Part shown: positions 9,756 through 43,827 of the stretch, one piece after another
How positions within the stretch are numbered: the stretch's first letter is position 1
Layout of the letters: the number at the start of each line of letters is the position of its first letter
DNA from: an uncultured Candidatus Saccharibacteria bacterium
GTDB lineage: Bacteria > Patescibacteriota > Minisyncoccia > Phycocordibacterales > UBA9973
Assembly: GCA_964473175.1 (NCBI GenBank)
Contig: CAYYNN010000003.1
Location: 7,057-71,056, forward strand
Direction: 5' to 3'
Length of the DNA: 64,000 nucleotides
Notes under the pieces: model-generated
The model's input: only the letters and a program-made list of their open reading frames with translations
Told to the model about the DNA's origin: nothing
Databases searched by the model: none
Made by a program: the position numbers and the translations under genes

Positions 9756-10412
9756 TTAAGCTGAAGGATCGTGTTTTGGTGGGTGCCATTTATGGAGTGG
9801 CTTGAAATCTCCTCCAAAGATGCCAGCATCAAGGGTTGCTGTGAGTACTGCGCGCATACATTGATAGTCTGCATTGAAGTCATGTGTCCCTGCCATCCAA
9901 GAAACACTCTCTGTACTGATCTCCACACCTTCTTCATCTAGCGATTGAAGAATTTCCTTTGCGGTGCGCCATGCTATTTCCATGATTTCACTTTCTTGGA
10001 GTTTCATTTTTGAAATATCACCTTCAAACACCGTAATGAAATCTCGAACCCAAATACGAGAACCGGTCTTCTTGCTTGTACGCCAAGGGATCAGTTGGTA
10101 TGGATTTATCTTGAGTCCGACTTCTTCTTCGAGTTCTTTGAGTGCTCCCATTTTGAATGATTCTCCCTCAACAATGTGTCCACCAAAATGTGTTGACCAT
10201 GCACCAGGAAAATTTTCTTTATCCATGGGGCGGCGATGACAGAGTATGTCTCCCTCTGTGTTTAATATAAAAATATTGGTAGTTCGACACCATAGCTTGT
10301 CTTGATACAGCTTAGCGCGCGAAACATGCTCTCCTGTTGGTTCTCCTGTGTCCGGATCTACTATTTGTAATAATTCATGTTGTGCCATAGGGTCGAGAGT
10401 ATAGCACATCAT
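9756..10412 (-). CDS. NUDIX hydrolase
   Basis: Nudix box GGHIVEGESFKMGALKELEEEVGL. Start trimmed to MMCYTLD. Confidence 0.75.
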   Translation of the reverse strand: MMCYTLDPMAQHELLQIVDPDTGEPTGEHVSRAKLYQDKLWCRTTNIFILNTEGDILCHRRPMDKENFPGAWSTHFGGHIVEGESFKMGALKELEEEVGLKINPYQLIPWRTSKKTGSRIWVRDFITVFEGDISKMKLQESEIMEIAWRTAKEILQSLDEEGVEISTESVSWMAGTHDFNADYQCMRAVLTATLDAGIFGGDFKPLHKWHPPKHDPSA

Positions 10413-10493
10413 TTTTTCTTGAGTATTTTCCAGACAAACATACAGACAGATCACAGATGTGAAAACATATAAAGAGATGTATACTGTACATCT

Positions 10494-10907
10494 ATGAAAA
10501 AAATAGCAATCGCAGTCAGTATTGTTCTCGTGGCGCTTGTGGGGTGGTTTATTTTAAAACCACACACTTCAGAGGTTGTTCCTGTTGAGACTACGACACC
10601 TAGTGAGGTAGTTATTCCGGTACAAGAAAGCACCCCGTTGGCTTCAGAAGGTTCGAGTTCTACAGGTACAGCAACATACTACACAGCGGCTCAGGTACGT
10701 GGACATGCAAATACAGATAGCTGTTGGTCAATCGTTAACGGTAAGGTATACGATCTGACACCATGGATTCAGCAACATCCTGGAGGGCAAAATGCTATTA
10801 CACAACTCTGTGGGATAGATGGCTCAAAAAATTTTAATGGGCAGCATGGTGGACAATCACGACCAGAGCAGGAGCTCGCCGGTTTCTTGGTTGGAATACT
10901 GAAATAA
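10494..10907 (+). CDS. Membrane-anchored cytochrome b5-like heme-binding domain protein
   Basis: N-terminal TM segment; HPGG motif in DLTPWIQQHPGGQNAI. Confidence 0.65.
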   Translation: MKKIAIAVSIVLVALVGWFILKPHTSEVVPVETTTPSEVVIPVQESTPLASEGSSSTGTATYYTAAQVRGHANTDSCWSIVNGKVYDLTPWIQQHPGGQNAITQLCGIDGSKNFNGQHGGQSRPEQELAGFLVGILK

Positions 10908-10913
10908 TACTCT

Positions 10914-11429
10914 ATGACATATAACCTTCATCCAATTTTTGTCCATTTTCCTATTGCACTCCTTGTTCTTTATTCCATTATTAAAGTGGTGCCACTCCGT
11001 AGATGGTTTCCAGCGGTGTCTTGGAAGGATATTGAGCGGATACTGCTCGTTATCGGTATTACAGGGGGATTTGCAGCACTTTCATCTGGTGAGACAGCGG
11101 AACATCTCACTCGTCCAAATCACGGTCTCGTTGATGCACATTCATTGTTTGCAACCGCAGCGGTATGGATGTATTCGGCATTACTAGTGGGGGAACTATT
11201 GTCGATACTAACGCCGCGGATTGTCACAACATTAACATCCTCAAAAATAATAAAAATAGTGGTATTTTTTAGAGACCTGCTTACACACTCTATTCTCTCG
11301 ACTGTGCTAGCTATTTTAGGACTCATTGCTATCTCAGTTACAGGAGTATTGGGAGGAGTTATGGTGTACGGAACAAGTGCTGACCCTATTGCGCCAATAG
11401 TTTTGAAAATACTTGGTATTTCGCTATAA
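10914..11429 (+). CDS. DUF2231-like membrane protein
   Basis: HPIFVHFPIAL N-terminal motif; 4 TM segments. Confidence 0.55.
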   Translation: MTYNLHPIFVHFPIALLVLYSIIKVVPLRRWFPAVSWKDIERILLVIGITGGFAALSSGETAEHLTRPNHGLVDAHSLFATAAVWMYSALLVGELLSILTPRIVTTLTSSKIIKIVVFFRDLLTHSILSTVLAILGLIAISVTGVLGGVMVYGTSADPIAPIVLKILGISL

Positions 11430-11487
11430 GATTTTTTGTTGTAGATGACCTTTGTTCAAATAAGGTTGATTACTATATACTAGCTCT

Positions 11488-11889
11488 ATGCAAAACAATA
11501 ATAAAATATTTATGACAATCGGCATGCTTATCCTTGGAATAGGCATTGGCTGGTTTGTGTGGGGTACCACAAAGCCAGAGCAACAATTACAGACTAACAA
11601 TGGCCACATGATGCCAGACGGTACGATGATGGGCGGCAGCGACTCAGCTATGAGCGCTATGATGGATGATATGAACGCTGCGCTTCGAGGCAAGACTGGA
11701 GATACGTTTGACAAAGAATTTCTCGCAGAAATGATTGTTCATCACCAAGGCGCAATTGATATGGCACAGCTTGCACTCACCAATGCAAAACATCAAGAGA
11801 TCAAAGACCTTGCAAACACTATTATAAAAGCTCAGACGTCTGAGATTGCACAGATGAAAATGTGGCAGAAAAATTGGTATAGCCAATAA
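11488..11889 (+). CDS. DUF305-family protein
   Basis: EFLAEMIVHHQGAIDMAQ motif; N-terminal TM segment. Confidence 0.65.
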   Translation: MQNNNKIFMTIGMLILGIGIGWFVWGTTKPEQQLQTNNGHMMPDGTMMGGSDSAMSAMMDDMNAALRGKTGDTFDKEFLAEMIVHHQGAIDMAQLALTNAKHQEIKDLANTIIKAQTSEIAQMKMWQKNWYSQ

Positions 11890-12258: not shown

Positions 12259-12548
12259 TTTTTTTGTTTATTTAATTGTTATAAATTATTAGGTTGTCTC
12301 TGGTCCCAAACAGGGAACACAGAAAACCCAACAAAATCAACAGTAAATAACCAAATATCTTAAAGAACTACTATAGTTATATAATAACATGAAATACTAT
12401 AAAAGTCAAGTAATAGCTCGACATGGTGCGAGATATTGGAACCTTCTGGAAGACGAATAAGGAGCTCATTTGGCTACCGAATATTAAGCAGGGGTTCTTT
12501 GGGATTAAGCAGCCTACCGCTAAAGAAATGGCGAATTATCGCTAATCT

Positions 12549-12806
12549 CTAGGGTACAAAGTTAGCAGCCTTATCGATAGCCTCCTCTTTTGCTGGTTGT
12601 ACCTGTTCATGCCAGCATGCCTTGATATCCCATCTGATCGGCCATTCAAATATACAATTGCTAGCGAAGAAATAGATAAAGGCTCCTATAAACACCACAA
12701 CGAAAACAATGGCCGTGAGAACCCATTGGAATTTCTCCTGCTCAGACATTTTGCGGTCCTTATACTTTCTTGGTTTATAGTATTTATATCTACCCATATT
12801 GGGCAA
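12549..12806 (-). CDS. Small single-TM hypothetical protein (85 aa)
   Basis: Basic N-terminus then a hydrophobic helix; sits in the island flank. Confidence 0.3.
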   Translation of the reverse strand: MPNMGRYKYYKPRKYKDRKMSEQEKFQWVLTAIVFVVVFIGAFIYFFASNCIFEWPIRWDIKACWHEQVQPAKEEAIDKAANFVP

Positions 12807-12859
12807 TATATTACCACTTTATTGACTTGTAATGCTATTCGATCAATGATCGTCGGTGT

Positions 12860-13063
12860 ATGAAAAATGAAACAGAAACATTCCCCAGACACACCTGCCA
12901 GTTTTGCGGCTGTGATCGTAAATTGGTCCAAACCCTGATTGATGACGAGTTTATCTGGGATGAAAAATCTCAAACATACGTACCTAATGGATTTACAGAT
13001 ACTTTTGAGCATACCGGTTATGCATACTGTCCCGAATGCAAAGAACAATGGACCGGAGCGTAA
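12860..13063 (+). CDS. Small zinc-ribbon protein (67 aa)
   Basis: CQFCGC ... CPEC cysteine pairs. Confidence 0.3.
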   Translation: MKNETETFPRHTCQFCGCDRKLVQTLIDDEFIWDEKSQTYVPNGFTDTFEHTGYAYCPECKEQWTGA

Positions 13064-13271
13064 CTTTTAATTTGAGATCCTCATATTAAAGGTTAAGGAT
13101 CCAAACTTTAATATGACTATGTAAGCAAAACTGCACCCGATCGTCTATAAAAGTGGTTATCCACATTGAATGGGAACTAATTGAAATAATTGTCAATCTA
13201 GGTTATACTATATTTAGTCTCATCTACCATGCGTAGAAGGAGCATCAGAAACCGTCCCGCAAGGGGCGGTT

Positions 13272-13772
13272 TCAGCTTTTAGGGGTATTCTTTCTGTAGT
13301 TATCCCTCTCTCTTTTAAATGATTCAATGCGGTGAGTGCTTGTCACATGATAGGCACTCAATAAGACAAATTTAGTACTTCGCTTTGATAGCACTACCGC
13401 AAACTGTCCTTCCTCGTACCAAATTACAAAGTTTTTAGAAGACTTTCTCTTACTTTCCCAATATGAAATATTCGGATGTGTTTCGTGGTTTTTAATGACC
13501 CAAGCGATCCAAGAAATACGCTCGCACCGTCTCATGTCTGGCGTTCTTTCAGACTCTTTTTCTCCCTCAGATATGATATGCCAGAAAGTAAAATGTTTTC
13601 CTTTTGTGGGCTCGAAATATCTAGTTTTAATCGGTAGGCCGAGAAAAGTTAGACTGCCATTTACAATGGTATCCTGGAATATCTTAAAAAGAGCATCCTC
13701 GTATGGTTGCCAATCTCCAGGAAATTCAAAGATTTCTGGTGGCTGCTGATTATCTATTGCTTCGGTCGCCAT
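13272..13772 (-). CDS. Uncharacterised 166-aa protein, downstream partner of the DUF3800 gene
   Basis: Start overlaps the DUF3800 stop by 19 nt, indicating translational coupling; hairpin at 13248..13273 follows; no family recognised. Confidence 0.5.
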   Translation of the reverse strand: MATEAIDNQQPPEIFEFPGDWQPYEDALFKIFQDTIVNGSLTFLGLPIKTRYFEPTKGKHFTFWHIISEGEKESERTPDMRRCERISWIAWVIKNHETHPNISYWESKRKSSKNFVIWYEEGQFAVVLSKRSTKFVLLSAYHVTSTHRIESFKRERDNYRKNTPKS

Positions 13773-14470
13773 ACAAGAACGTTAAATTTATCCTCATCCT
13801 TTGCAGAAGACGTAAGCATTTCAGTCTCTCCGATACTGCTCTTTATGACTTCTATTACTTTCTTTTTACCCTCATTTGAGCTTAATGCTCGGTGGGTATA
13901 AGAAAGTGCACCAATAAGAATATCTACTAATTGCATGAGCTCGACTTCATGGGACCTAATCTGTTGTGCCTTCGAGACAGCAAACACATCCTCAACACTC
14001 GCAATGTTGAGTATTCGCTGTAATTCCTGAACTTTTACGTTGCTCTTGGTATCCTTGATATCGAGATAAAGATTGTATTCTGATGTTTCAGCCTCTCTTC
14101 CCACTATCTGGTTAAGCAGAACATAGAACATTTTGTAATACCAAGTGTTGTGGTCCTGTCCAAAAGCTGAGTGGTCCAAAATACTTTTGTCAGGTACTAC
14201 CACCCCCCTAAAGTGTAGGTTTTCATTGCTGAAGAAATACTTTGCTAGGTCACAGTAATAGTCAGCTTTTGCCGGTGATACTTTTGTCCATTTTGCCTCA
14301 AAGTTTTCAGCCAGCTTGTGTTTGATTTTAATATCTCTCAAATCTTGGAATATCTCAGCTGTCTTGTCCTTAGAAACCCATACAGCTCCAAGCACAAAAG
14401 TCTTGTTTTTATCATTCAACAAGTGGCAACTTTCATCGCAATAAATATTATAGGTTTTTTTGGCTTCCAT
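13754..14470 (-). CDS. DUF3800-family protein
   Basis: N-terminal YNIYCDES motif typical of DUF3800 (YxDESG) and the DILIGALSY region; divergent from the restriction-modification operon. Confidence 0.55.
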   Translation of the reverse strand: MEAKKTYNIYCDESCHLLNDKNKTFVLGAVWVSKDKTAEIFQDLRDIKIKHKLAENFEAKWTKVSPAKADYYCDLAKYFFSNENLHFRGVVVPDKSILDHSAFGQDHNTWYYKMFYVLLNQIVGREAETSEYNLYLDIKDTKSNVKVQELQRILNIASVEDVFAVSKAQQIRSHEVELMQLVDILIGALSYTHRALSSNEGKKKVIEVIKSSIGETEMLTSSAKDEDKFNVLVWRPKQ

Positions 14471-14545
14471 GCGGAAAATATTTTACCACATTTAGCCTAT
14501 TTTATATAGGAGAAAACCTTTATTTTTAGGTGAAAAAATGGTAAA

Positions 14546-14746
14546 GTGTTGTGTAATATGACTCCGGTTGCAAGTCCAAACAAAATAGAAACCTACATCA
14601 AGTGCAAGAAGTGTGGCACCGAGGTTTTTACTATTACAAACGGTGGATTAACTGCATGTAAGTGTGGGGCTATTTCGGTTGATGGGTCAAAGGATCTTGT
14701 AAGGGTTCTCGGGAATTCTGAGGACTACGAGGAAATACAAAAATAA
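14546..14746 (+). CDS. Small zinc-ribbon protein (66 aa) immediately upstream of hsdR
   Basis: CKKCGTEV ... CKCG cysteine pairs; ends 5 nt before the hsdR start. Confidence 0.35.
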   Translation: MLCNMTPVASPNKIETYIKCKKCGTEVFTITNGGLTACKCGAISVDGSKDLVRVLGNSEDYEEIQK

Positions 14747-14750
14747 ATTT

Positions 14751-17309
14751 ATGAACAAAAAAGAAGCATCAGCAAGAATAAAAATAAACAAACTCCTCGA
14801 GGAAGCAGGATGGCGTTTTGAGGCGGATAAAAATGGTCCGGCAAATATTCAACTTGAGCCAGGAGTTAAATATTCTGAACTTGGTGATGATTTTGAACAT
14901 GAGGTTCATGGTTTTATAGACTTTCTGCTTTTAGATAAAGACAATCGACCGCTACTCGTTGTTGAAGCGAAGAAAGAATCCATTGATCCACTTTCTGCAA
15001 AAGAACAGGCTAGAAACTATGCTCGAAATGTCGGTGCTCGCTTTGTCATTCTTTCAAACGGAAATATTCATTACTTCTGGGATACAAAGCATGGTAATCC
15101 AGATACCATCTCACGATTCCCAACACAAGAATCAATTACTCAGTATGAGAAATACACACCTAATCCTGCTGAGCTTGCGAACACACCAGTCGATGAAAAC
15201 TATGTCGTGGAGACTCAGATGCCCACCTTTGCAAAAGACCCTGCTTTCCAAGATGAATCTACTCGCTCTGAGTTTTTGAGAACCAATAACCTTAAGCAAC
15301 TTCGTCCTTATCAGGTCCAGGCTATTAAAGCACTTCAGGAATCAGCAAAAGAAGGTAAACAGAGATTTTTGTTTGAAATGGCAACAGGTACAGGAAAGAC
15401 TCTTATCTCGGCAGCAGTTATTAAACTATTCTTGAAATCTGGTAACGCACGCAGGGTCCTATTCCTCGTGGATAGAATCGAACTTGAAGATCAGGCTTTT
15501 AAGGCGTTTAGAAATTATCTTGGTAAAGACTTTGGTTGTGTGATTTACAAAGACAGTCGTGACTCATGGCAGAAAGCTCAAGTAGTAGTTTCAACAATTC
15601 AATCATTCCTCGCTGGTGATAAATATCGCAAAGAGTTTTCACCTACGGATTTCGAGCTGGTTATCTCAGATGAATCACATCGATCAATTGGCGGTAATAG
15701 TCGTGCGGTATTTGAATATTTTGTGGGCTATAAACTTGGCCTTACTGCTACTCCTAAAGATTACCTTAAGGGGTTTGATAACGACGGTGCCGACACTCAA
15801 AGAGAATTTGAGAGACGACAACTACTAGATACCTATAAAACGTTTGGATGTGAGGCAGGACAGCCAACATTCCGCTATGACCTTATAAAAGGTGTTCAAG
15901 ATAAATTCCTTATCAATCCTGTAGTGGTAGACGCTCGTACAGAAATTACAACTGAGCTTTTGTCAGACAAAGGCTATGCGGTCCACACCACAACCGATGA
16001 TGGTGAGTTGATTGATAAGGTTTTTAACGAACGACACTACGAAAGAAAGTTCTTCAATGAAGAGACCAATATTGCCATGAGCAAGGCATTTATCGATAAC
16101 GGCTTATTCGATCCTGTAGCGAAAGAGCTTGGTGTGAACTTGTTTGGTAAATCTATCGTGTTCTGCGTCTCTCAAAAACATGCGGCAAGAGTTACAAATA
16201 TCCTCAATAGGCTAGCATTTGAAAAGTGGCCAGACCTGTACAGTGAGTCTAACTTTGCAATGCAAATAACATCTCAAGTGTCCGATGCGCAGCAGATGAC
16301 GATTAACTTTGCCAACAACATGCTCGGTGGTAAAACAAACAAGCCAGAGGGATACGATTCAAGTAAAACTCGTGTTTGCGTGACTGTAGGAATGATGACA
16401 ACTGGATATGATTGTCAGGATATTTTGAACATTGCCCTTATGCGACCAGTGTTCAGTCCCTCAGACTTTGTCCAGATCAAGGGTCGTGGTACTCGAAAGC
16501 ATTTATTTGAATATCAAGATTATTCGACAAATGATAGAACTGCTTTTCCTAAAGACAAATTCAAGTTCTTCGACTTCTTTGCTACATGTGAATATTTTGA
16601 AAAAGAGTTCTCATACGATGAAAAGATAAAGCTACCTACTATTAAACAGCTTACCGGTCCCGAGACCTCGATTGATACCAATGCTACTCAAGGTGAGTTT
16701 GTAGATGAGAATGGTCAGAAGATATTCAAAGGACCTGTAGATATTGATACAGATGACAAAGTCGTATCAGTAGCTGAGACTCATGTCGGTGACCAAGGTA
16801 TGCGCATTGATCGTGAAGGTTTCAAGCGTGCCATAGAAGAAGACGTGCTTGGAAACCAGACTCTCAAGAATATGTGGGATAACGGCGACACTGAGGAAGC
16901 TGAGGATTACGTAAAGAAAAATATCCTTGATAAACCTAAGCATTTCCTCAATCTTGCTAATATTCGTAAATTGTTTAATGTTGATCGTCGCATCACCGTT
17001 AAGGAGTTTTTACAGGTAGCATTTGGACAAAAAACAGGCTTTGAAACAAAAGACGACTTACTAGAATCCGAATGGACCAAGTTTACAGAAGTGAATCCTG
17101 TGGACCAAGAACACTTTGATGCAGTTAAGAGTTTTTTCAAAGCTTACATTGTCGACAGTGAAGTGAGAGAGATTATTAAAAAGAATACTCCTGCTCAGTT
17201 TAACTTCTGTGCCACCTTCGGCTTTGATGAATATCAGAAACTAAATGGTTTCAAAACGGTCGTACCTCAATACATTAATGATTACGCTTATCAGCTAACC
17301 AACCTATAA
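14751..17309 (+). CDS. hsdR: Type I restriction enzyme R subunit-like protein (N-terminal PD-ExK nuclease plus SF2 helicase)
   Basis: HsdR_N-like D...VVEAKK motif; helicase motifs ATGTGKT, DESHRS, LTATP and QIKGRGTR. Confidence 0.8.
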   Translation: MNKKEASARIKINKLLEEAGWRFEADKNGPANIQLEPGVKYSELGDDFEHEVHGFIDFLLLDKDNRPLLVVEAKKESIDPLSAKEQARNYARNVGARFVILSNGNIHYFWDTKHGNPDTISRFPTQESITQYEKYTPNPAELANTPVDENYVVETQMPTFAKDPAFQDESTRSEFLRTNNLKQLRPYQVQAIKALQESAKEGKQRFLFEMATGTGKTLISAAVIKLFLKSGNARRVLFLVDRIELEDQAFKAFRNYLGKDFGCVIYKDSRDSWQKAQVVVSTIQSFLAGDKYRKEFSPTDFELVISDESHRSIGGNSRAVFEYFVGYKLGLTATPKDYLKGFDNDGADTQREFERRQLLDTYKTFGCEAGQPTFRYDLIKGVQDKFLINPVVVDARTEITTELLSDKGYAVHTTTDDGELIDKVFNERHYERKFFNEETNIAMSKAFIDNGLFDPVAKELGVNLFGKSIVFCVSQKHAARVTNILNRLAFEKWPDLYSESNFAMQITSQVSDAQQMTINFANNMLGGKTNKPEGYDSSKTRVCVTVGMMTTGYDCQDILNIALMRPVFSPSDFVQIKGRGTRKHLFEYQDYSTNDRTAFPKDKFKFFDFFATCEYFEKEFSYDEKIKLPTIKQLTGPETSIDTNATQGEFVDENGQKIFKGPVDIDTDDKVVSVAETHVGDQGMRIDREGFKRAIEEDVLGNQTLKNMWDNGDTEEAEDYVKKNILDKPKHFLNLANIRKLFNVDRRITVKEFLQVAFGQKTGFETKDDLLESEWTKFTEVNPVDQEHFDAVKSFFKAYIVDSEVREIIKKNTPAQFNFCATFGFDEYQKLNGFKTVVPQYINDYAYQLTNL

Positions 17310-17313
17310 AACT

Positions 17314-19815
17314 ATGAATGCAGAAACCAAAAGACATATAGATGCAGCCAGGCAGGTCCTCGTAGGCGTGGTCCCTAACCCAACTTCTCAAATAGATCAG
17401 ATCACCAATGCACTCATCTATAAATTTATGGATGATATGGACCAATCTGCAATCAAGTCTGGTGGCGAAGCATCATTTTTTACAGGTGACCTCGAGAGAT
17501 ATGCTTGGACCAGACTCATGGATACTCGTGTTGGAAACCAAGAGCGAATGAATCTCTATTCAGAGGCATTGGTAAAGTTTTCAGAATCAAAACAACTTCC
17601 GGAACTATTTAGAAATATTTTCAAATCAGCATATTTGCCATATCGGTCCCCAGATGTACTCGGGCTATTTCTAAAAGAGATAGATTATTTTAATTACTCA
17701 CATCCCGAAGAATTGGGAAATGCATATGAGTATTTACTTTCAATCATGTCATCACAAGGTGATGCTGGGCAGTTCCGCACACCGCGTCACATTATCGATT
17801 TTATAGTTGAGGCAGTAAATCCAACCAAAGATGACAAGGTCCTAGATCCTGCATGTGGTACTGGAGGCTTCTTGATTAGTGCCTACAAAAATATTCTCAA
17901 GCAACACGATGGTAAAGATGATCCAAAGAAAAAGGAAAAGCCTCTTACTCCCGACCAGCGCCGAACTTTAATGCAAAACTTTGAAGGGTATGACATCGAT
18001 CCTGGAATGGTCCGTATCGCACAGGTAAACATGTACCTACACCAATTCAAGAATCCAAAGATTGTACAGTATGACTCGCTTTCAATGGATGAAAGGTGGA
18101 ATGATAAATTTGATGTGATATTAGCAAATCCACCATTCATGTCTCCGAAGGGTGGTGTAAGTACTCATAATAAGTTTGGTATTCAATCGACTCGGTCCGA
18201 AGTGTTGTTTGTGGACTACATAATGAATCATCTTAGACCAAAAGGTCGCGCCGGCATCATTGTGCCAGAGGGAATAATCTTCCAGTCGGGCGCGGCTTAC
18301 CAGCAACTTCGGAAAAATCTTGTAAACGATGGTCTGTATGCTGTAGTAAGTTTGCCATCCGGAGTATTTCAACCTTACAGTAGTGTGAAAACTAGTATTT
18401 TATTTTTTGATAATGAAATCTCCAAGAAAGCTAGTGATGTTTTGTTTGTAAAAATTAATAATGATGGTTTTGAGCTTGGTGCTCAACGGAGACCATTAAA
18501 AACAAGTCATATCCCAGCTGCGATTGAGATATTGCGCCTTTATAAACAACGTGTTCTTGAAGGTGGAAAAATCACATTTCAAAGTGATGATGAGTTTGCG
18601 GTGCTAGTTCCGAAGGAAAAGATAGCAAAAGACAATGATTACAATCTTTCAGGTGATCGTTATCGCGCTACGTCTGATTTTACTAGTACTAAATATCCAA
18701 TGGTTAGGATAGATGAGGTTTGTGAGATATTAAGCGGTGGCGGTTTTCCAGTAGACGAACAAGGCGCTACAAATGGAGATATTCCATTCTTAAAGGTTAG
18801 TGACATGAACTTACCTGGTAATGAAATATGGATTAATCATGCAAATAACTTTGTTAATAAGGAAACACTGAAAAAACTTAAGGTTAAAACTGCGCCAAAA
18901 GGAACAATAATTTTTCCTAAGATTGGTGCAGCCATCGCTACAAATAAAAAGAGAATTTTATCTCGGGAATCTGCTTATGACAACAATGTTATGGGGTTAA
19001 TACCTAATGAAAAAATAAATCCATCCTTTCTTTTTTACTTGTTGAAACAACTTAATCTATCTGATTGGGCATCTGCATCAGCTTTACCATCAATAAGAAA
19101 ATCAGATGTTGAAAAATATTTGATTACTCTTCCGCCACTTGAAGTTCAAAAAGAAATTGTAGAGCAAATTGAGGTTAGACAAAAGGCTATCCAGGGCGCT
19201 CGGGAAGTTATCAAAAATCTAGAGAGAGAGAGACGATATTTTGGCCAGTCACTTAAAAAGTTAAATTATCAAATGACAGACATGGCTAATATATTTAATA
19301 AAGTAAGTGATCAGATTAATCCGCAACAATATGATTATGAGGTAGTTTATATTGGGCTTGAAAATATTGAATCTAACTCTGGTGTTCTAGTTGGGGATAT
19401 AAAATCTAATACAAAATCAATTAAAAGCATAAAGGGGGCTTTTAAAAAAGGAGATATCCTTTATGGAAAACTAAGACCGAATTTAAATAAGGTATGGTTT
19501 GCTAACTGTGACGGAATTTGCTCAACAGATATTTTAATTCTGCGTCCCACATCAAAAGAAATATCATCAAAAGTTTATTCTCTTATTTTGCAGAGCGATG
19601 AATTTAATCGAGAAGTATTGAATGGTATCAAAGGTGCTCAATTGCCCAGAGTAAGTTTTGATTATATATCTAAAATAAAGATCCCCGTTATTCCATATGA
19701 AGATCAGAACAAATTTATTTCAGAAATGGAAACAGAAGAAAAAGTAATCGAGTTAAACAAGAAAATTATTGAAATCCTGGAGAATAAGATTTCTGTAACC
19801 TTGAGTGAAATATAA
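17314..19815 (+). CDS. N6-adenine DNA methyltransferase (HsdM-like) fused to a single HsdS-type target recognition domain
   Basis: DPACGTGGFL motif I and NPPF motif IV; C-terminal roughly 380 aa resembles an HsdS recognition domain with a conserved helical spacer. Confidence 0.8.
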   Translation: MNAETKRHIDAARQVLVGVVPNPTSQIDQITNALIYKFMDDMDQSAIKSGGEASFFTGDLERYAWTRLMDTRVGNQERMNLYSEALVKFSESKQLPELFRNIFKSAYLPYRSPDVLGLFLKEIDYFNYSHPEELGNAYEYLLSIMSSQGDAGQFRTPRHIIDFIVEAVNPTKDDKVLDPACGTGGFLISAYKNILKQHDGKDDPKKKEKPLTPDQRRTLMQNFEGYDIDPGMVRIAQVNMYLHQFKNPKIVQYDSLSMDERWNDKFDVILANPPFMSPKGGVSTHNKFGIQSTRSEVLFVDYIMNHLRPKGRAGIIVPEGIIFQSGAAYQQLRKNLVNDGLYAVVSLPSGVFQPYSSVKTSILFFDNEISKKASDVLFVKINNDGFELGAQRRPLKTSHIPAAIEILRLYKQRVLEGGKITFQSDDEFAVLVPKEKIAKDNDYNLSGDRYRATSDFTSTKYPMVRIDEVCEILSGGGFPVDEQGATNGDIPFLKVSDMNLPGNEIWINHANNFVNKETLKKLKVKTAPKGTIIFPKIGAAIATNKKRILSRESAYDNNVMGLIPNEKINPSFLFYLLKQLNLSDWASASALPSIRKSDVEKYLITLPPLEVQKEIVEQIEVRQKAIQGAREVIKNLERERRYFGQSLKKLNYQMTDMANIFNKVSDQINPQQYDYEVVYIGLENIESNSGVLVGDIKSNTKSIKSIKGAFKKGDILYGKLRPNLNKVWFANCDGICSTDILILRPTSKEISSKVYSLILQSDEFNREVLNGIKGAQLPRVSFDYISKIKIPVIPYEDQNKFISEMETEEKVIELNKKIIEILENKISVTLSEI

Positions 19816-20491
19816 ATCTATGAAGAAGGCAGCTAAAAATCAGTTAGTAAATTATGACAAGCAACTTGAACAACAACAAGAAAAGTTTTTAATCTTGCTT
19901 GGTAATAATGGCCTACCAACTGAGGGTATATTTGTCCCAATCAAAGAAAGAATAGCTGTTTTCTCTAACGCTAACTCTCTGCTCGATAATATAGATAATG
20001 GTCAAAGGTCCGAGGCAATATATGTTTCAAAATTCTTCGCAGCTGTTGGTGCCGGTCTATTTGATGCTGCTTTAAATTATATCTGGGACGAAACTATTCT
20101 TCATTTAAGAAAACGTGTAGAGGTCTATGATCTTGAATATTTCTATGAAATAGCTGCCTCTCCAGATAAAAGAAAAGACCTAAAAACCATTGACGATATT
20201 TCAAAGCTTACAGACGACGAATTGCTTAGAGGTGCTCTCAAAATTGACCTAATTTCAGAAACTGGCTACAGAAATATGGATCTTGTTAGGTACATGCGTA
20301 ACAACGCTAGCGCGGCACATCCTAATCAGCTAGATATTACAGGGCTGAAACTTACGTCAATGGCTGAAGATTGTTTGAGAGAGGTAATCTCTACACCGAT
20401 TCCTCCTGCTGCAATCGCAGTTCAAAAACTTCTCGAGAACATTAAGACAACAGCGATGACAGCTAGTGACGCTAAAGAATCCTTATTTTAA
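19805..20491 (+). CDS. Uncharacterised 228-aa protein translationally coupled to the methyltransferase
   Basis: Start overlaps the methyltransferase stop by 11 nt; no family recognised. Confidence 0.5.
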   Translation: MKYKSMKKAAKNQLVNYDKQLEQQQEKFLILLGNNGLPTEGIFVPIKERIAVFSNANSLLDNIDNGQRSEAIYVSKFFAAVGAGLFDAALNYIWDETILHLRKRVEVYDLEYFYEIAASPDKRKDLKTIDDISKLTDDELLRGALKIDLISETGYRNMDLVRYMRNNASAAHPNQLDITGLKLTSMAEDCLREVISTPIPPAAIAVQKLLENIKTTAMTASDAKESLF

Positions 20492-20496
20492 GCGGT

Positions 20497-20641
20497 AAAA
20501 GTAATGCACCATTTTTTGCACTTTTTACACATTACGATAAGGACAGTCCTAAGAAAGTAATTCCTACAGTTAGGAAAATTTACAGCCTTAGGATTACAAC
20601 GTTGGTCCCGAAAAGTAATGCAACACGTTTTTCACTTTTTG
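20497..20641 (+). repeat. Two copies of a roughly 31-bp direct repeat (aaaagtaatgcaNcaNNtttttNcacttttt), 114 bp apart
   Basis: Copies at 20497..20527 and 20611..20641; short inverted repeats tcctaa/ttagga lie between them. Confidence 0.35.
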
Positions 20642-20673
20642 AGATCGACAATATAAACATTCCAGTTGCGCGG

Positions 20674-20719
20674 AAAGAGCTGAGTCACTCGCAACTGGGA
20701 CTCAGCTCTTTCTGTTTTC
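20674..20719 (+). terminator. Perfect 11-bp-stem hairpin with a T-rich tail; terminator or operator
   Basis: agagctgagtc, a 12-nt loop, gactcagctct, then ttctgtttt. Confidence 0.4.
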
Positions 20720-20909
20720 AGGAAGAACTCCGCAAAGGTCGAACCCCTCATTATGCTTACCAAACAGGCACTAGAAGAATACAAACAACTCCACCGAGAA
20801 GAAACCGGTACGGTCCTTCCCGATGATGTTCTTGCTAATGAGGCAATTAACTTGCTCACGCTTTTTAACTTCGTCTACAGGCCGATAAAGAAAGTGTGGC
20901 TCGAAGAAT

Positions 20910-21899
20910 ATGGACGACAAAATAAATCTAAACGAGGAATGGCAGAGAGCTCTCAGTCAGAAGTACAAATCGCCGAAACGAGTGGCGAAGTTCGAAGAAT
21001 TCAAAAAGACCCACCTCGAACAAACCAGGAGTGAAATAAATCCGGACACACTTCGCAGTAAGAAAAAGCCCAATAGGTTTGTTGTCGATAACGAGTATGT
21101 CAAAGGTTATTACCTAGCGAAATTTCCACCAGTCTGTTCTCAGGTTCTTTTCACGTTACTTGTCCATTGTAACCTCAACAGGCAGGATGCCTTTCCGAGC
21201 ATTGTCACCATTCAAGAACTCTCCGGATGTACCAACACTCGAAGTGTCATTAGTGCTCTGAGGATTCTTGAGGCCTACGGGATACTCAACATTCGTCGGT
21301 CCAAGAGAGGGATAAAAGCAGTGAATGTCTATTTCTTTCAGTCGGTCCGACATTGGAGACCACTCTCAAAGAGCATGAAAAAGATTAAGCTCACTGATCC
21401 ATTACCGCAATGGCAAAATTCCGTCCAGAGCACTGGCAGAAAACAGACCTATCGTACTGGCCCTACTGCCAATCTAACTAACCTAAGAGAAAACTATAAT
21501 AATAAAATACAAAATATTGGAGATATTTTAAGGGAAAGATTCAAAATGCCAGAAGACCCGTCTAAGGTTGCTATTCCCACACCTTCTAGCAATACTGTCG
21601 TCGATGACAAAAAGGCAGAAGACATGGGACCTGATACGCTTGTTAGAACAGGTGAAAAACAAGAGTATCGTACTGGCACTAATGCCACTACGATTGATAC
21701 CCGTAATAACGGGAAATTAACGGGAACCGAAAGTCAGAGACATGGCATGTCATCAGCCGTTTATAAACGGGAAATAACGGTCGAAAAACCTCCCGAGGAT
21801 CCATTTATAAATGGAGAAAAATGGACTAAGGAAGATGGAGGTATCGGCCTGATGAATATCAACAATGAAGACATCGGACCAGGAAGCGCAACATTATAA
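20910..21899 (+). CDS. Winged-helix DNA-binding protein, plasmid/phage replication-initiator-like, with C-terminal KQxYRTG repeats
   Basis: wHTH-like segment FPSIVTIQELSGCTNTRSVISALRILEAYGIL; repeats KQTYRTGPTA and KQEYRTGTNA. Confidence 0.45.
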   Translation: MDDKINLNEEWQRALSQKYKSPKRVAKFEEFKKTHLEQTRSEINPDTLRSKKKPNRFVVDNEYVKGYYLAKFPPVCSQVLFTLLVHCNLNRQDAFPSIVTIQELSGCTNTRSVISALRILEAYGILNIRRSKRGIKAVNVYFFQSVRHWRPLSKSMKKIKLTDPLPQWQNSVQSTGRKQTYRTGPTANLTNLRENYNNKIQNIGDILRERFKMPEDPSKVAIPTPSSNTVVDDKKAEDMGPDTLVRTGEKQEYRTGTNATTIDTRNNGKLTGTESQRHGMSSAVYKREITVEKPPEDPFINGEKWTKEDGGIGLMNINNEDIGPGSATL

Positions 21900-21904
21900 A
21901 AACT

Positions 21905-23569
21905 ATGAACAACACAAAACCAACAATTAAATACTTCCTCTACGCACGTAAATCAAGCGAGGCAGAAGACCGTCAGGCAGCGTCCATCGATGCCCAGAAA
22001 GACGAGCTTATGAAGATTGCAAAGGATCAAGGCTTACACATCCTAGATATCCTTGAAGAATCACAATCAGCCAAAAAGCCAGGCAGGAAAGTATTCAACT
22101 CAATGCTTGAGAGAATCTATAAAGGAGAAGCCAATGGCATCCTGTGTTGGAAACTAGACCGCCTAGCACGTAATCCTGTCGATGGTGGCCAGATAAGTTG
22201 GATGTTGCAGCAGAGTGCCGTATCTCAAATTGTTACCTTCGGCCGAACTTACTATCCCACTGACAACGTTCTCATGATGCAGGTCGAACTTGGTATGGCC
22301 AATCAGTTTATCCGAGACCTATCAGTGAACGTAAAGCGAGGTCTACAAAAGAAGGTAAGAGATGGATGGATGCCAAGTGGCGCACCGATCGGATACCTCA
22401 ATACTCCAAATAAACAAAAGGGTTATAAGACTTTGGAAAAAGATCCTGAAAGATTTCCACTGGTCCGAAGACTCTTTGACCTTGCACTTACCGGCAATTA
22501 TTCAATGGCCCAGATTTGGAATATCTCAAGAAAGCAGTTGAATCTCCGAACGGTCCCACGTAGGAACATTGGCGGCGAACATCTTTCACGGTCAGCAATT
22601 TATGCAGTCCTTGGTAATCCATTTTATTACGGCTGGTTTGAGTTTCCGCTCCACAGTGGCAATTGGAATAAGGGAGCGCATGAGCCAATGGTAACCAAAG
22701 AGGAATTTGATCAAGTACAAAAGGTTATGGGTAGAACCAACCAGCCACGTCCACGACATGAGGAGAGAATGTTCGCTTTTACCGGCCTTATGAAATGTGC
22801 CACTTGTGGTTGCAGTATTACAGCTCAAGCCAAAGTAAAGCGTTGCAAGAATGGTAATGTTCACCATTATGTTTATTACAACTGCACCAAAAAGAGATAT
22901 GACGCTGGCTGCACTGAAAAGCATGTCGAAGTAAAATTGCTACACCTCCAGATCGGGGCAATACTTAAGGATATAAAAATTTCAGAAGAATATCGTGACT
23001 GGGCGGTCCGCCATGTCCATGAGGTTCGCAAGAATGAAGCCGAGAGTGACTCAATTGCAATAAGGACCAAACACAAGGAATGTGAAGAAGTGACGCAGCA
23101 GCTGCAGTCTTTGACTTTGAACTTCACTGCACCCTCCAACAAGGCTCGAAACGTTATTGGCGAACAGGAATACCAGTCTCTTAAGTCTGAGCTACTCAGA
23201 AAGAAGGGTCTTCTTGAAGACGAATTAAAGATCAAGAATAAGGCGGTCGAACAATGGGCAGAACTTTCAGAACAAACCTTTGACTTTGCTTGCTATGCAC
23301 ACCTTTGGTACGAGAATGGCGATGAAAAGACCAAAAGAGCGATACTCGCATGCCTTGGCTCGAACCTCACCATTTCAGACAAAAAGATCCAGCTTTCTTA
23401 CAGTTCTTTCTTTTTGAGCCTCATAAAAGCACGAGAAGCTATTCAACAGGAAATAGAGCACGCTCGAACCTACAAAAAGCCAGGCCACATACGACAAAAG
23501 TGGCATCATGTGCCACTTTTGTCAGTCAGGCTCCCCCGGCTGGATTCGAACCAACGACCCATCGCTTAA
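21905..23569 (+). CDS. Large serine recombinase (resolvase domain, recombinase domain and zinc ribbon)
   Basis: YARKSSE catalytic serine motif; CATCGC ... CTKK zinc ribbon; coiled-coil C-terminus. The last 13 codons are antisense to tRNA-Asn. Confidence 0.85.
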   Translation: MNNTKPTIKYFLYARKSSEAEDRQAASIDAQKDELMKIAKDQGLHILDILEESQSAKKPGRKVFNSMLERIYKGEANGILCWKLDRLARNPVDGGQISWMLQQSAVSQIVTFGRTYYPTDNVLMMQVELGMANQFIRDLSVNVKRGLQKKVRDGWMPSGAPIGYLNTPNKQKGYKTLEKDPERFPLVRRLFDLALTGNYSMAQIWNISRKQLNLRTVPRRNIGGEHLSRSAIYAVLGNPFYYGWFEFPLHSGNWNKGAHEPMVTKEEFDQVQKVMGRTNQPRPRHEERMFAFTGLMKCATCGCSITAQAKVKRCKNGNVHHYVYYNCTKKRYDAGCTEKHVEVKLLHLQIGAILKDIKISEEYRDWAVRHVHEVRKNEAESDSIAIRTKHKECEEVTQQLQSLTLNFTAPSNKARNVIGEQEYQSLKSELLRKKGLLEDELKIKNKAVEQWAELSEQTFDFACYAHLWYENGDEKTKRAILACLGSNLTISDKKIQLSYSSFFLSLIKAREAIQQEIEHARTYKKPGHIRQKWHHVPLLSVRLPRLDSNQRPIA

Positions 23570-23602
23570 CAGGCGATTGCTCTACCGCTGAGCTACAAGG
23601 GA
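23531..23602 (-). tRNA. tRNA-Asn (GUU)
   Basis: Minus-strand cloverleaf: acceptor TCCCTTG/CGGGGGA, anticodon loop CTGTTAA, T-loop GGTTCGAATCC. Confidence 0.8.
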
Positions 23603-23653
23603 ATGCGGTGTTCAAAATTGAACTTGAAGACTATACCATTTTTTTCAATGGCT

Positions 23654-23893
23654 TCAAAGCCTGAAATCGCTTTTATACACGGTTCGTAGCGGTGCATTTG
23701 GATGGTTGTTCCATACATCAAACCGTCCCCATCCATAGCCTATTTGGGGCTCTGAGAGATATCGAGGCGCCTGTGCCGCAAGCCATGTACCTGGTGGTAT
23801 AGCTGTTGGTGCGATCCATTCACCGCGCACAAGGTGCGGGTACATGACCCAAACGAGCAGGAGCGCGCCAATAGTTGCCAATACTTTACCCAT
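23654..23893 (-). CDS. Small hydrophobic hypothetical protein (79 aa)
   Basis: ORF with an N-terminal TM segment; no similarity recognised. Confidence 0.3.
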   Translation of the reverse strand: MGKVLATIGALLLVWVMYPHLVRGEWIAPTAIPPGTWLAAQAPRYLSEPQIGYGWGRFDVWNNHPNAPLRTVYKSDFRL

Positions 23894-41248: not shown

Positions 41249-41250
41249 TA

Positions 41251-42519: not shown

Positions 42520-42601
42520 TTTTTATCGTTTTATTTTGTTAAAGAATTAGTTTCTAAATCTGTTCTTATTATAACAGATTATATACATTTTGTCAATAAA
42601 A

Positions 42602-42634
42602 AAACCCTCTCATAAAGAAAGGGTTTAAAGGTTT
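42602..42634 (-). terminator. Rho-independent terminator for the 42645..43244 gene
   Basis: Minus-strand hairpin aaaccctttctttatgagagggttt followed by TTTTTTTT. Confidence 0.6.
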
Positions 42635-42644
42635 TAATCGCAGC

Positions 42645-43244: not shown

Positions 43245-43427
43245 GATGTATTTTTTTAAAGTTTAAATTGATTGGTTGAGGCGTCCAGCAGGGCAGTACG
43301 GGATATCTCAACCAATCAACGACAACTTCATGAATCTGAGTATATTATAGCAGGTATACATACTTTTGTCAAGCACTAGTGTATACAGCAAAAAAGCCCT
43401 AGAAATAGGACTTTTTTGTGTACGATG

Positions 43428-43500
43428 TGCCCCCAGAGGGATTCGAACCCACGACCGTCTCCTTAAGAGGGAGCTGCTCTACCAACTGAGCTATAGAGGC
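43428..43500 (-). tRNA. tRNA-Lys (CUU)
   Basis: Acceptor GCCTCTA/TGGGGGC, anticodon loop CTCTTAA, T-loop GGTTCGAATCC; one mismatch each in the anticodon and T stems. Confidence 0.7.
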
Positions 43501-43520
43501 ATACCTATGTACTTGTACTG

Positions 43521-43602: not shown

Positions 43603-43653
43603 GTAAGCGCCTGGTGCCCCCAATAATACCGTATTTCGCACACTCTTTCAAGG

Positions 43654-43736: not shown

Positions 43737-43741
43737 AGGGA

Positions 43742-43812: not shown

Positions 43813-43827
43813 ATATATAGTGTGGTG

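Follow-up and report, generated by a model that had tools for sequence, protein, structure and literature searches.

Gene content of the locus

We analyzed a stretch of DNA of 64 kb (here called the window) from a Patescibacteria-type genome. Positions 12420 to 23529 (11,110 bp) constitute an integrative element inserted by its own large serine recombinase (LSR) at the extreme 3' end of a tRNA-Asn gene (Table 1). The element carries anti-phage defense as cargo, namely, a type I restriction-modification system and the PDC-M04 pair, together with a rep-like gene and small ORFs. This agrees with the preliminary description of the locus, which had listed a rep-like gene, restriction-modification, a DUF3800 pair, and three small ORFs; the rep-like protein is of the HTH_36 type, and the restriction-modification genes encode a type I R subunit and a fused M-S protein. 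In PADLOC, the fused protein was recognized both as MTase_I (E = 3.8e-99) and as Specificity_I. The two small ORFs closest to the left end gave no Pfam, PADLOC, or PHROG match; genes are called at the equivalent positions in L005. The DUF7695-like ORF is approximately 82% identical in nucleotides to the equivalent gene of L003, and its L005 counterpart is annotated PF24749. The 228-aa protein had no Pfam or PADLOC match.

The rep-like protein matched PHROG replication initiation proteins (E ~3e-5), and its gene always lies directly upstream of the integrase gene, with the same order in L003, L004, and L148. Since a rep-like gene and an integrase are present and recognizable virion genes are absent, the element is plasmid-like rather than phage-like. 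The intergenic region upstream of rep contains two 30-nt direct repeats (20497-20526 and 20611-20640) and interleaved inverted repeats (20664-20712), and it shares 76 to 81% nucleotide identity with the corresponding position of L004 and L008, despite the different cargo of these loci. From these sequence features, we infer that it may represent an origin or control region.

Table 1. Coordinates of the element, its junctions, and the adjoining tRNA gene in the window
Feature	Position	Strand	Basis or remark
Host B arm, original tRNA-Asn 3' flank, now at left junction	12380..12415		Left of attL GCTC core
attL core GCTC, crossover region	12416..12419		Directly before displaced tail exon
Displaced integrase 3' end, 41 codons (DMVRDIGTFWKTNKELIWLPNIKQGFFGIKQPTAKEMANYR) + stop	12420..12545	+	phmmer match to P0001 C terminus
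T-loop-like motif ATTGGAACC, P' positions 16-24	12435..12443	+	Comparison with tRNA T-loop
Hydrophobic small ORF, 85 aa, TTG start	12549..12806	-	ORF list
Small ORF, 67 aa, two CxxC pairs	12860..13063	+	ORF list, sequence
PDC-M04B, DUF3800 partner, candidate defense pair	13272..13772	-	PADLOC E = 1.6e-50
PDC-M04A, DUF3800 protein	13754..14470	-	Pfam DUF3800 E = 7e-13; PADLOC E = 3.6e-80
DUF7695-like small ORF upstream of R subunit	14546..14746	+	phrog_7042, E = 1.4e-4
Type I restriction R subunit, 852 aa	14751..17309	+	Pfam ResIII, HSDR_N_2; PADLOC REase_I E = 7.6e-54
Fused type I methyltransferase + specificity subunit, 833 aa	17314..19815	+	Pfam N6_Mtase, Methylase_S
228-aa protein	19805..20491	+	phrog_27609 (function unknown), E = 2.5e-35
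Conserved intergenic region upstream of rep, candidate origin/control region	20497..20743		Repeats, conservation
Rep-like protein, 329 aa, winged HTH	20910..21899	+	Pfam HTH_36, 23.1 bits, under 25-bit cutoff
Integrated-state LSR ORF, 554 aa	21905..23569	+	Pfam Resolvase, Recombinase, Zn_ribbon_recom
12-bp hairpin (ACAAAAGTGGCA / TGCCACTTTTGT, 5-nt loop) in integrase ORF	23494..23522	-	8 nt from tRNA 3' end
attR core GCTC	23530..23533		tRNA strand: G71, A72, G73 (discriminator) + next base
tRNA-Asn(GTT), intact, probable B' arm of attB	23531..23602	-	Rfam RF00005, 66.1 bits
Promoter-like site upstream of tRNA	23630..23657	-	TTGAAG-16-TATAGT with upstream TG, consensus match only

The integrase gene ends inside tRNA-Asn

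The integrase has invariant Y13, R15, S17, and Q24 residues as well as four cysteines, and its AF2 model (pLDDT 83) found its best Foldseek matches in the SPbeta, Bxb1, phiC31, and LI integrases. Residues 1 to 543 are encoded by the element, while residues 543 to 554 and the stop are read from the antisense strand of tRNA-Asn, which ARAGORN called at 23529..23602 on the minus strand. Codon 543 starts at 23531 and opens a run of 12 sense codons (LPRLDSNQRPIA), after which comes a TAA stop that overlaps the anticodon. ARAGORN, Rfam, and Pfam thus bear out the earlier report that the recombinase reads antisense into the tRNA. That report gave no cause for the overlap; the cause is the location of attP within the integrase gene.

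Junctions and attP-form contigs

The exchange occurred inside a 4-bp identity, GCTC, corresponding to tRNA nt 71 to 74, and tRNA-Asn was therefore left intact. GCTC is the sole sequence common to both junctions (12416-19 and 23530-33), and it is conserved at the junction in 21/21 close relatives shown. Three further contigs from the same population have an identical host B arm, and the attL of L021 has a similar ATTACTTGAC. The left boundary had been placed at 12259 and has to be moved to 12420, some 160 bp inward. Furthermore, a direct repeat of the tRNA-Asn 3' segment had been suggested as attL/attR, but in the 64-kb window this segment had a single match, the tRNA itself. A lack of long tRNA repeats, with GCTC alone being shared, is what is expected for a serine integrase.

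Two independent contigs, L003 and L148, carry an unsplit gene of 584 aa with an attP junction. In L003, this junction reads ...GTCAGTCAGGCTC followed by GACATGGTGCGGGATATCGG, that is, the left arm of attR of the window joined to the right arm of attL. Window positions 20855..23533 and L003 1..2679 share 99.85% identity, which breaks off at the core, exactly at 23533; on the other side, the blastn match begins exactly at 12416. Up to the core, the integrase body shows 0/1626 nt mismatches, whereas the tail exon is only 88% identical. Because the cargo of L003 differs, L003 represents a sister element and not an excised copy of the element described here; its source sample also contains the integrated copy. 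The second attP-form contig, L148, comes from another, unrelated assembly.

The element also differs in composition. Its GC content (39.95% versus 41.65%) is below that of all 154 windows of the same size, and its tetranucleotide distance is raised (0.199 versus 0.095 ± 0.007). Together with the attP-form contigs and the two junctions, this supports an element of about 11 kb at tRNA-Asn. We found no empty attB site: attL was present in each of three contigs from the same population, and two metagenome scans returned nothing.

Integration displaces a conserved C-terminal tail

The attP site is located in the integrase ORF, with 41 codons between it and the stop. The free element thus encodes a 584-aa enzyme, and integration replaces the last 41 residues by tRNA-antisense residues. 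In the integrated state, these 543 preceding residues are unchanged, and the antisense strand of the tRNA determines the remainder, here 11 residues. The displaced 3' end lies in the left flank, which had been called unusually non-coding, and it matches the C terminus of the 584-aa form P0001 (phmmer E = 5.9e-22). This exon is open to the same stop position as P0001, with two stop codons just upstream; the P' arm of attP corresponds to the initial ~25 nt of the exon. Similarly, L014, L011, L036, and L021 have tail exons immediately preceded by GCTC, 5.5 to 7.5 kb upstream of the integrase, and all displaced exons found were intact (5/5).

The tail showed a dN/dS of ~0.10 (dS 0.9 to 1.2), and for codons 11 to 41, beyond the att site, pN/pS was ~0.2, with synonymous sites near saturation. 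In addition, the motif [LI]PN..G..Y...PT..E is kept across integrases that are only 67 to 70% identical. Judging from these substitution patterns, the native 41-codon tail, intact at the far junction, is evolving under purifying selection. Excision would rejoin this parked tail to the integrase gene. The folded domains finish near residue 523 in the AF2 model, with pLDDT <50 for residues 524 to 574. The tail is thus predicted to be disordered, in a model fed by only ~13 native-tail sequences, and the predicted structure is therefore silent on its role.

A T-loop-like motif in the P' half-site

The counterpart of the T-loop-like motif in tRNA-Asn (ATTCGAACC, 23544..23552) occupies B' positions 11 to 19, so that the motif lies 5 bp further outward in P' (16 to 24). 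GAAC[CT] was found at P' 20 to 24 in most related arms shown (window, L003, L019, L030, L018, and L148), while L021 has GTACC in its place. These positions are the same as in the ZD-motif model of the A118 att sites, with a motif at 16 to 24 in attP and 11 to 19 in attB (PMC3783163). The tRNA acceptor/T-arm would then serve as the B' half-site, and the P' half-site, where the coding sequence of the tail begins, would copy the T-loop 5 bp outward, an offset that would correspond to the arrangement proposed for LSR zinc-ribbon domains telling attP from attB. Between the P and B arms, the half-sites on the left, no 5-bp shift is seen, and the B arms vary between hosts.

A hairpin next to the tRNA

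An equivalent hairpin with other stem sequences is visible in most of 36 integrated loci. In 22/31 unique loci, the tRNA-sense strand forms the more stable hairpin of the two strands (P = 0.0008, an optimistic value since the loci are related). The encoded peptide is variable (KWHHVPLL, NRHDVPVL, NPTNCEVS), and a simple terminator scan did not call the hairpin. Insertion would push the tRNA terminator 11 kb away, and the hairpin of the ORF, brought to just 3' of the tRNA, probably replaces it. It is unlikely, in our view, that the hairpin instead attenuates integrase expression or is a protein-binding inverted repeat of the attP P arm. Its distance to the crossover, 8 to 36 nt, is within reach of an attP half-site, and the sense strand of the integrase gene likewise forms a hairpin, followed by a T-run (TTTT). 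However, the stem sequence varies freely among relatives while pairing is kept, which speaks for a structural element and against a protein site with sequence specificity, and G-U pairs stabilize the hairpin more on the tRNA-sense strand.

The layout recurs in a family of Patescibacterial integrases

A convergent tRNA or T-arm antisense was found at the end of 57/73 complete homologues in genome contigs, with tRNAs for Asn, Lys, Ser, Gln, His, Leu, and Ile. All T-loops read in the homologue C termini listed are in one frame (DSN/GSN/ESN). Together, these two observations indicate that the overlap of integrase and tRNA is not due to chance. Native tails were present in ~16/120 database homologues, one 90% identity cluster holds at least 6 different C termini, and near-identical integrases occur at several different tRNA variants. 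The tRNA-derived tails range from 2 to ~30 residues with no sign of selection. This layout is common to a large integrase family in Patescibacteria that has apparently not been described before.

Interpretation and alternatives

Overall, we consider it very probable that the element was inserted by an LSR whose attP lies in its own gene and whose tail is swapped at tRNA-Asn. A classical tRNA island, inserted by a tyrosine integrase or through duplicated-tRNA homology and carrying the serine recombinase as a passenger resolvase or invertase, would fit with tRNA islands being mostly of that kind (PMC4383910; PMC7192596). This explanation is contradicted by our data and is hardly tenable: the tRNA 3' repeat is absent from the whole 64-kb window, Pfam, PADLOC, and PHROG searches found no tyrosine recombinase among the proteins of the element, and the junction is internal to the ORF of the serine recombinase, with which it travels throughout the family. 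It is also very unlikely that the element is a fixed, immobile remnant, with the overlap as a fossil and the attP-form contigs as assembly artifacts over a shared repeat. Neither an empty site nor an excised copy of this exact element was recovered, and the sample of L003 has the integrated copy, with which L003 shares an identical 2.7 kb; both points would be compatible with this view. Nevertheless, the P' arm at the L003 attP junction is diverged and specific to L003, and the assembly used k = 141; a junction of this kind could not have arisen from a 4-bp overlap, and L148 comes from an unrelated assembly. Moreover, neither the integrase ORF nor the tail exon is disrupted, and near-identical integrases occur at several tRNA variants.

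Since no folded domain extends past about residue 523 in the model, the integrated-state integrase is probably still active; we identified no recombination directionality factor for it. We tentatively suggest that the tail, a conserved disordered peptide that only the free form produces, could tune the enzyme by state. It might favor or license attP x attB recombination in the free form, and the integrated form could stay excision competent or be more stable. A possible, if rather doubtful, alternative with the same anatomy is that the swap has no function, attP having reached the 3' end of the ORF by mere drift during compaction of the element, with a dispensable tail and isoforms that behave alike. 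The predicted disorder of the tail and the preceding 20 residues, the unselected tRNA-derived tails of so many lengths, and the lack of the native tail in most database copies would all be compatible with this. In contrast, the purifying selection far past the att half-site, the motif kept among distant integrases, and the integrity of every displaced exon argue against it.

Comparison with known systems

Like A118/LI, SPbeta SprA, Bxb1, and phiC31, the integrase combines a catalytic domain, an alpha-E helix, a recombinase domain, and a zinc ribbon with a coiled-coil insert. As for phage large serine integrases, the att sites are short, attP/attB identity is almost nil, and the distal half-site motif lies 5 bp further out in attP. 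Unlike in those systems, attP lies in the integrase ORF so that the gene is cut on integration, insertion is directed to tRNA gene 3' ends, and the protein is extended at its C terminus by ~110 extra residues, including a disordered, exchangeable tail. Serine integrases at tRNA genes were described as previously unreported in a 2020 survey of integrative elements, which saw them in 14/297 cases (PMC7192596). tRNA-targeting islands with tyrosine integrases (Islander/TIGER type) and tycheposons share with this family an integrase adjoining a functional tRNA, defense or adaptive cargo, and tandem accretion at one tRNA. However, they restore the tRNA via a long identical segment that leaves a tRNA-fragment direct repeat, whereas none is present here and the crossover takes place at the last nucleotides of the tRNA.

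The "suicidal" integrases of SSV1, pTN3, and pT26-2 are archaeal tyrosine recombinases, while the present one is a bacterial serine recombinase. The compact int-att module of the SSV type is thought to promote exchange between elements (PMC8371274), and the gene fragmentation to bar excision by the integrated copy. Here, by contrast, only the disordered tail of 41 residues is predicted to be lost, with all folded domains remaining. In the mycobacteriophages BPs, Brujita, and relatives, attP is located in the 3' part of a gene, the free and integrated C termini differ, and the DNA state of the split gene thereby sets protein behavior (PMC4557955). As in this integration-dependent immunity, the DNA state sets the C terminus of a protein in our element. 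The split gene of these phages is, however, the repressor, next to a tyrosine-type integrase, while here the integrase itself is split. Moreover, the tail removed in those phages is an ssrA-like degradation tag, whereas the tails of the present family end in ...EYR or ...KYK, with no evident tag.

The integrase gene is split by integration

The preliminary description had the recombinase open reading frame ending antisense within the tRNA-Asn gene, and this was borne out by ARAGORN, Rfam, Pfam and the sequence itself (see the table). Codon 543 of the integrase starts at 23531, so that the antisense strand of the tRNA (positions 73 to 35) supplies the 12 C-terminal residues (LPRLDSNQRPIA) and the TAA stop, which overlaps the anticodon. 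A homology search returned thousands of relatives, whose integrase bodies align up to a nearly invariant L543 and whose C-termini diverge beyond it. In most relatives, the residues past L543 are of the kind RRQDSNL, RDQGSNLGHPP, GSWDSNPGPIG or LDSNQRPTP; all these ends are the translated antisense of a tRNA T-arm, in one common frame. About 16 of 120 homologues carry instead a "native" tail of 25-45 residues.

One unsplit form, P0001 (584 aa), has a body 100% identical to that of the window integrase and ends in DMVRDIGTFWKTNKEHIWLPNIKQGFFGIVQPTEAEMAEYR. Across the island, at its other end, positions 12420..12545 encode nearly the same peptide; two stop codons lie immediately upstream of this tail exon, and the tail stop is at the homologous position. 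Because the P0001-like tail was found at the far island end, the integrase gene spans attP, and integration detached its last 41 codons. The att site thus lies within the integrase gene, which was partitioned on integration into a body (21905..23533) and the last 41 codons (12420..12545). The unsplit gene is present in two attP-form contigs, L003 and L148, the latter from an unrelated assembly and with the same junction.

Features of the element and of a related locus
Feature	Location	Strand	Remarks
Integrated element	12420..23529		11,110 bp; circular form 11,114 bp
Large serine recombinase ORF	21905..23569	+	554 aa; Pfam Resolvase, Recombinase, Zn_ribbon_recom
tRNA-Asn(GTT), ARAGORN	23529..23602	-	
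tRNA-Asn(GTT), Rfam	23531..23602	-	66.1 bits
Intergenic region upstream of rep-like gene	20497-20743		76-81% conserved in the related loci L004 and L008 despite different cargo
Two 30-nt direct repeats	20497-20526, 20611-20640		within 20497-20743
Two interleaved perfect inverted repeats	20664-20712		within 20497-20743
Group I intron	L004 11705-12031	-	5' exon near L004 12270-12307

The crossover maps to a GCTC core at the end of the tRNA gene

We compared the two junctions of the element with the unsplit site of L003. The right junction, attR, reads ...GTCAGTCAG-GCTC-CCCCGGCTGGATTCGAACC..., the left junction, attL, ...AAGTCAAGTAATA-GCTC-GACATGGTGCGAGATATTGG..., and the L003 junction ...GTCAGTCAG-GCTC-GACATGGTGCGGGATATCGG..., and the identity common to attL, attR and attP is limited to GCTC. 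By BLASTN, window 20855..23533 matches L003 1..2679 at 99.85% identity (no mismatch in the 1626 nt of the integrase body) and stops at the last base of GCTC, and window 12416..12514 matches L003 2676..2774 at 88% identity, starting at its first base. As both matches are bounded by GCTC, the exchange took place within it. We reconstructed attP of the window element as …GTCAGTCAGGCTC|GACATGGTGCGAGATATTGG… and its attB as …AAGTCAAGTAATAGCTC|CCCCGGCTGGATTCG…. On the tRNA strand, the core corresponds to G71, A72, the discriminator G73 and the next base; from 23534 onward the tRNA gene is host sequence, and the tRNA remains intact. The same layout was found in four other integrated loci (L014, L011, L036 and L021): in each, an intact tail exon comes right after GCTC, and the integrase lies 5.5-7.5 kb downstream.

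A direct repeat of the tRNA-Asn 3' segment, proposed earlier as the check on the att sites, does not exist in the 64-kb window: even with up to 3 mismatches allowed, a 22-nt probe from the T-arm matched only the tRNA itself. The lack of such a repeat is in keeping with a serine integrase and does not speak against integration. No empty site was found: looking up the exact proteins encoded by the flanking genes brought up only contigs that were integrated or uninformative, and neither the reconstructed attB nor a 47-mer of the tRNA 3' end had an exact match in scans of metagenome contigs. None of the three loci compared with the window by BLASTN (L003, L004 and L008) has the host flanks of the window element. 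Rather than an excised copy of the window element, L003 is a sister with other cargo (Fic, an EcoRI-type methylase and GmrSD). The divergence between the two breaks sharply at the core, with the rep-integrase module at 99.85% identity, the tail exon at 88% and the cargo different; the rep-integrase and tail-cargo modules appear to have been reshuffled at the att site.

The tRNA-Asn gene (23531-23602, minus strand) has two adjacent G-U pairs in its acceptor stem (U5-G68 and U6-G67) and one more in the T stem, and it does not encode CCA. Integration turns its trailer from GAGC-TATT into GAGC-CTGA. We rejected the two acceptor-stem G-U pairs as a mark of a tRNA 3' half donated by the element, since a crossover at nucleotides 71-74 makes the acceptor stem host sequence. 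A short-read Logan contig, L001 (SRR12712864), begins at 23576, a position within the tRNA where the anticodon stem starts, 43 nt from the att core. This break was also rejected as an excised or empty allele, for which the branch would be expected near 23530; a different tRNA-Asn allele present in the sample is its probable source.

The enzyme is a large serine recombinase that appears to read mainly the tRNA half-site

The enzyme belongs to the large serine recombinases. Its N-terminus is a resolvase-type catalytic domain (Pfam Resolvase, E = 2.1e-20), the Pfam Recombinase and Zn_ribbon_recom families were matched as well, and the catalytic-domain residues Y13, R15, S17, Q24, R61, R86 and R89, together with the zinc-ribbon cysteines C298, C301, C327 and C336, do not vary in sets of 40 and 80 homologues. 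An AlphaFold (AF2) model built from the 80 homologues (mean pLDDT 83, vs 34 for a single-sequence run) shows a catalytic domain, an alpha-E helix, a recombinase domain, a zinc ribbon and a long coiled coil with helices 364-408 and 420-471. The closest structures found by Foldseek are the SPbeta (E = 1e-20), Bxb1, phiC31 and Listeria LI integrases; the closest sequences are SPbeta and A118. Serine integrases make a 2-bp staggered cut followed by subunit rotation, and they require a directionality factor for excision. Among the small ORFs of the element, no candidate recombination directionality factor was recognised with Pfam, PADLOC or PHROG.

In the right arm of attB (B'), contributed by the tRNA, the T-loop ATTCGAACC occupies positions 11-19 from the core, and in the right arm of attP (P'), ATTGGAACC occupies positions 16-24. 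This is in agreement with the zinc-ribbon motif described at bp 16-24 in attP and 11-19 in attB (Rutherford et al., PMC3783163). The GAACC motif occupies B' positions 15-19 and P' positions 20-24. GAAC[CT] stands at P' positions 20-24 in most of the related P' arms shown (GTACC in L021), and this DNA motif encodes the conserved residues [FI]-[RG]-T at the start of the tail. The right half-sites thus agree with the 5-bp shift between attP and attB motifs, whereas the left half-sites do not show it. Together with the variation of the left arm of attB between hosts, this suggests that most of the att recognition falls to the tRNA half.

The detached tail is under selection

We then considered what the detached tail might do. 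Its dN/dS is about 0.10 (dS 0.9-1.2; window, L003 and L014). Furthermore, codons 11-41, too distant to belong to any plausible att half-site and not overlapped by any gene of the window, have a pN/pS of about 0.2, and the motif [LI]PN..G..[YF]...PT..E recurs in the tails of integrases that are only 67-70% identical. Taken together, these data indicate that the tail is selected as a peptide. In the AlphaFold model, residues 524-574 are predicted to be disordered with a short terminal helix; the predicted folded domains end near residue 523, so that the cut at residue 543 removes none of them. Judging from this model, integration probably leaves the enzyme active, and the tail resembles a linear regulatory motif that is present only in the product of the free element.

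Our preferred reading, held with low confidence, is that the tail exerts state-dependent control of directionality or stability. A neutral swap of tails without function, to be weighed against the constraint on the tail peptide, is about equally probable. As to stability, the tails end in ...AEMAEYR, ...EMANYR or ...AEMAKYK, with no obvious ssrA-like degradation tag. As to directionality, the free element would make full-length integrase, whose conserved tail would license attP x attB recombination (or block attL x attR), and the integrated element would make a tail-less enzyme capable of excision, the state of the DNA itself replacing the separate directionality factor of other serine integrases. 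We consider it rather doubtful that the split gene is such a built-in switch in a family that would also supply serine integrases naturally targeting the universally conserved T-arm and acceptor end of tRNAs.

Serine integrases rank among the main tools of genome engineering, and that they act in one direction is ascribed to a separate directionality protein. In the present natural family, the C-terminus of the enzyme itself changes with the integration state, which offers a testable alternative to such a protein. The enzyme is of a known class; its arrangement is not standard. As in SSV-type suicidal integration, the att site is inside the integrase gene and integration partitions it. However, the SSV-type enzyme is a tyrosine recombinase of which no complete copy is left, whereas the window enzyme is a serine recombinase and would keep all its predicted folded domains. 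In bacteria, the nearest functional counterpart is BPs-type integration-dependent immunity, where attP falls within the repressor gene, whose product loses a degradation tag on integration (PMC4557955). There, an ssrA-like tag is lost from the free form of the repressor, whereas here it is the integrase gene that is split and the tails carry no obvious tag. Unlike Islander-type islands of tyrosine integrases, the window element has no displaced tRNA 3' fragment as a distal direct repeat. The family overturns two generalisations, namely that serine integrases are not known to use tRNA genes (a 2020 survey found this previously unreported use in 14 of 297 elements; PMC7192596) and that recombinases disrupting their own gene, all of them tyrosine enzymes, are exclusively archaeal (2021 review, PMC8371274). 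A full-text literature search of incomplete coverage turned up no account of a serine integrase with attP inside its gene, which is absence of evidence only.

A hairpin within the integrase gene may replace the tRNA terminator

At 23494..23522, 8 nt from the tRNA 3' end, a 12-bp stem lies between A- and T-runs. An equivalent hairpin is visible in most of 36 integrated loci; as neither the sequence of the stem nor the peptide encoded there is constant, it is the structure that is conserved. In 22 of 31 unique loci, the more stable hairpin is the one on the tRNA-sense strand (mean energy -14.8 vs -11.7 kcal/mol; Wilcoxon p = 0.0008, an optimistic value since the loci are related), because G-U pairs on that strand are C-A mismatches on the other. 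Since the insertion moved the original downstream flank of the tRNA 11 kb away, we infer that the hairpin is a replacement terminator for tRNA-Asn supplied by the element. A simple terminator scan made no call at 23494..23522, and the hairpin may also attenuate transcription of the integrase. If it does serve as a replacement terminator, crossover at the last nucleotides of the tRNA and a terminator hidden in the ORF would together make the insertion harmless, in a tRNA gene and by an enzyme with almost no homology requirement.

The integrase family targets several tRNA genes, mostly in Patescibacteria

A scan of genome contigs for the integrase family gave 80 loci with 73 complete genes, mostly labelled Paceibacterota, Patescibacteria or Saccharibacteria, with a few Verrucomicrobia, Elusimicrobia, Aminicenantes and others. 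In 35 of the 73, the integrase ends in or at a convergent tRNA detected by ARAGORN (Asn 15, Ser 6, Lys 5, Gln 4, His 3, Leu 1, Ile 1), and another 22 end in T-arm-like antisense, several of these being tRNA-Asn genes with a group I intron. Within one cluster at 90% identity, the same integrase body carries at least six C-termini (four tRNA-derived and two native tails), which argues for recent movement between sites and hosts.

The group I intron (Rfam RF00028, 54 bits) sits in the anticodon loop of the target tRNA-Asn(GTT) in several related Patescibacteria, namely in L004 and also in L010, L011, L013, L014 and L015. The 5' exon ends in ...CCTGT and the 3' exon starts with TAAGCGAT; ARAGORN misses these split genes, and their 3' end is still used by the integrase. 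Tandem arrays were seen in L021 (integrase 10001-11701, tRNA-Asn 19895-19968), L018, L036 and L028: the first integrase runs into the apparent tail exon of a second element, whose distant recombinase (25-29% identity) abuts tRNA-Asn 8-10 kb downstream. These arrays suggest that attR, a left attP arm joined to the tRNA, is usable as a target, which would fit recognition mainly through the tRNA half. Six distant members from Verrucomicrobia and others (L064, L065, L066, L075, L083 and L086) are on long contigs and have long native tails (DDVRT...) with no adjacent tRNA; they either have another site layout or are part of plasmids or arrays.

The elements look like small integrative plasmids carrying defence genes

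All of the cargo listed in the preliminary description (a rep-like gene, restriction-modification, the DUF3800 pair and small ORFs) is present, and the compositional shift that it proposed to look for was found. The GC content of the element is 39.95%, vs 41.65% in the rest of the window and below all 154 segments of the same size, and by tetranucleotide distance it stands about twice as far off as any other segment. The DUF3800 pair corresponds to PADLOC PDC-M04A/B, and an additional 228-aa protein is of unknown function. The restriction-modification system is of type I, with an HsdR-type helicase-nuclease as R subunit and an N6-adenine methyltransferase and two target-recognition domains, the M and S subunits being fused in one 833-aa protein.

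No virion genes were recognisable among the proteins of the window element with Pfam, PADLOC or PHROG, a rep-like gene is conserved upstream of the integrase, and IMG/VR holds only seven moderately related copies (at most 44% identity). The elements therefore look like small integrative plasmids, the plasmid- rather than phage-like reading resting on the lack of recognisable virion genes in the window element. The mobile elements of Patescibacteria are poorly known, and this family is a widespread vehicle of defence genes among them. The conserved intergenic region upstream of the rep-like gene, with its direct and inverted repeats (see the table), could serve as an origin, as iterons or as a regulatory RNA. 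The rep-like gene itself contains an imperfect 43-nt direct repeat (74%; 21429-21471 and 21645-21687) encoding a repeated ...QxYRTG... peptide. Elsewhere in the window, 41000-43900 is low in GC (36-37%) and adjoins four tRNA genes (Lys, Leu, Leu and Cys; 43427-43812, minus strand).
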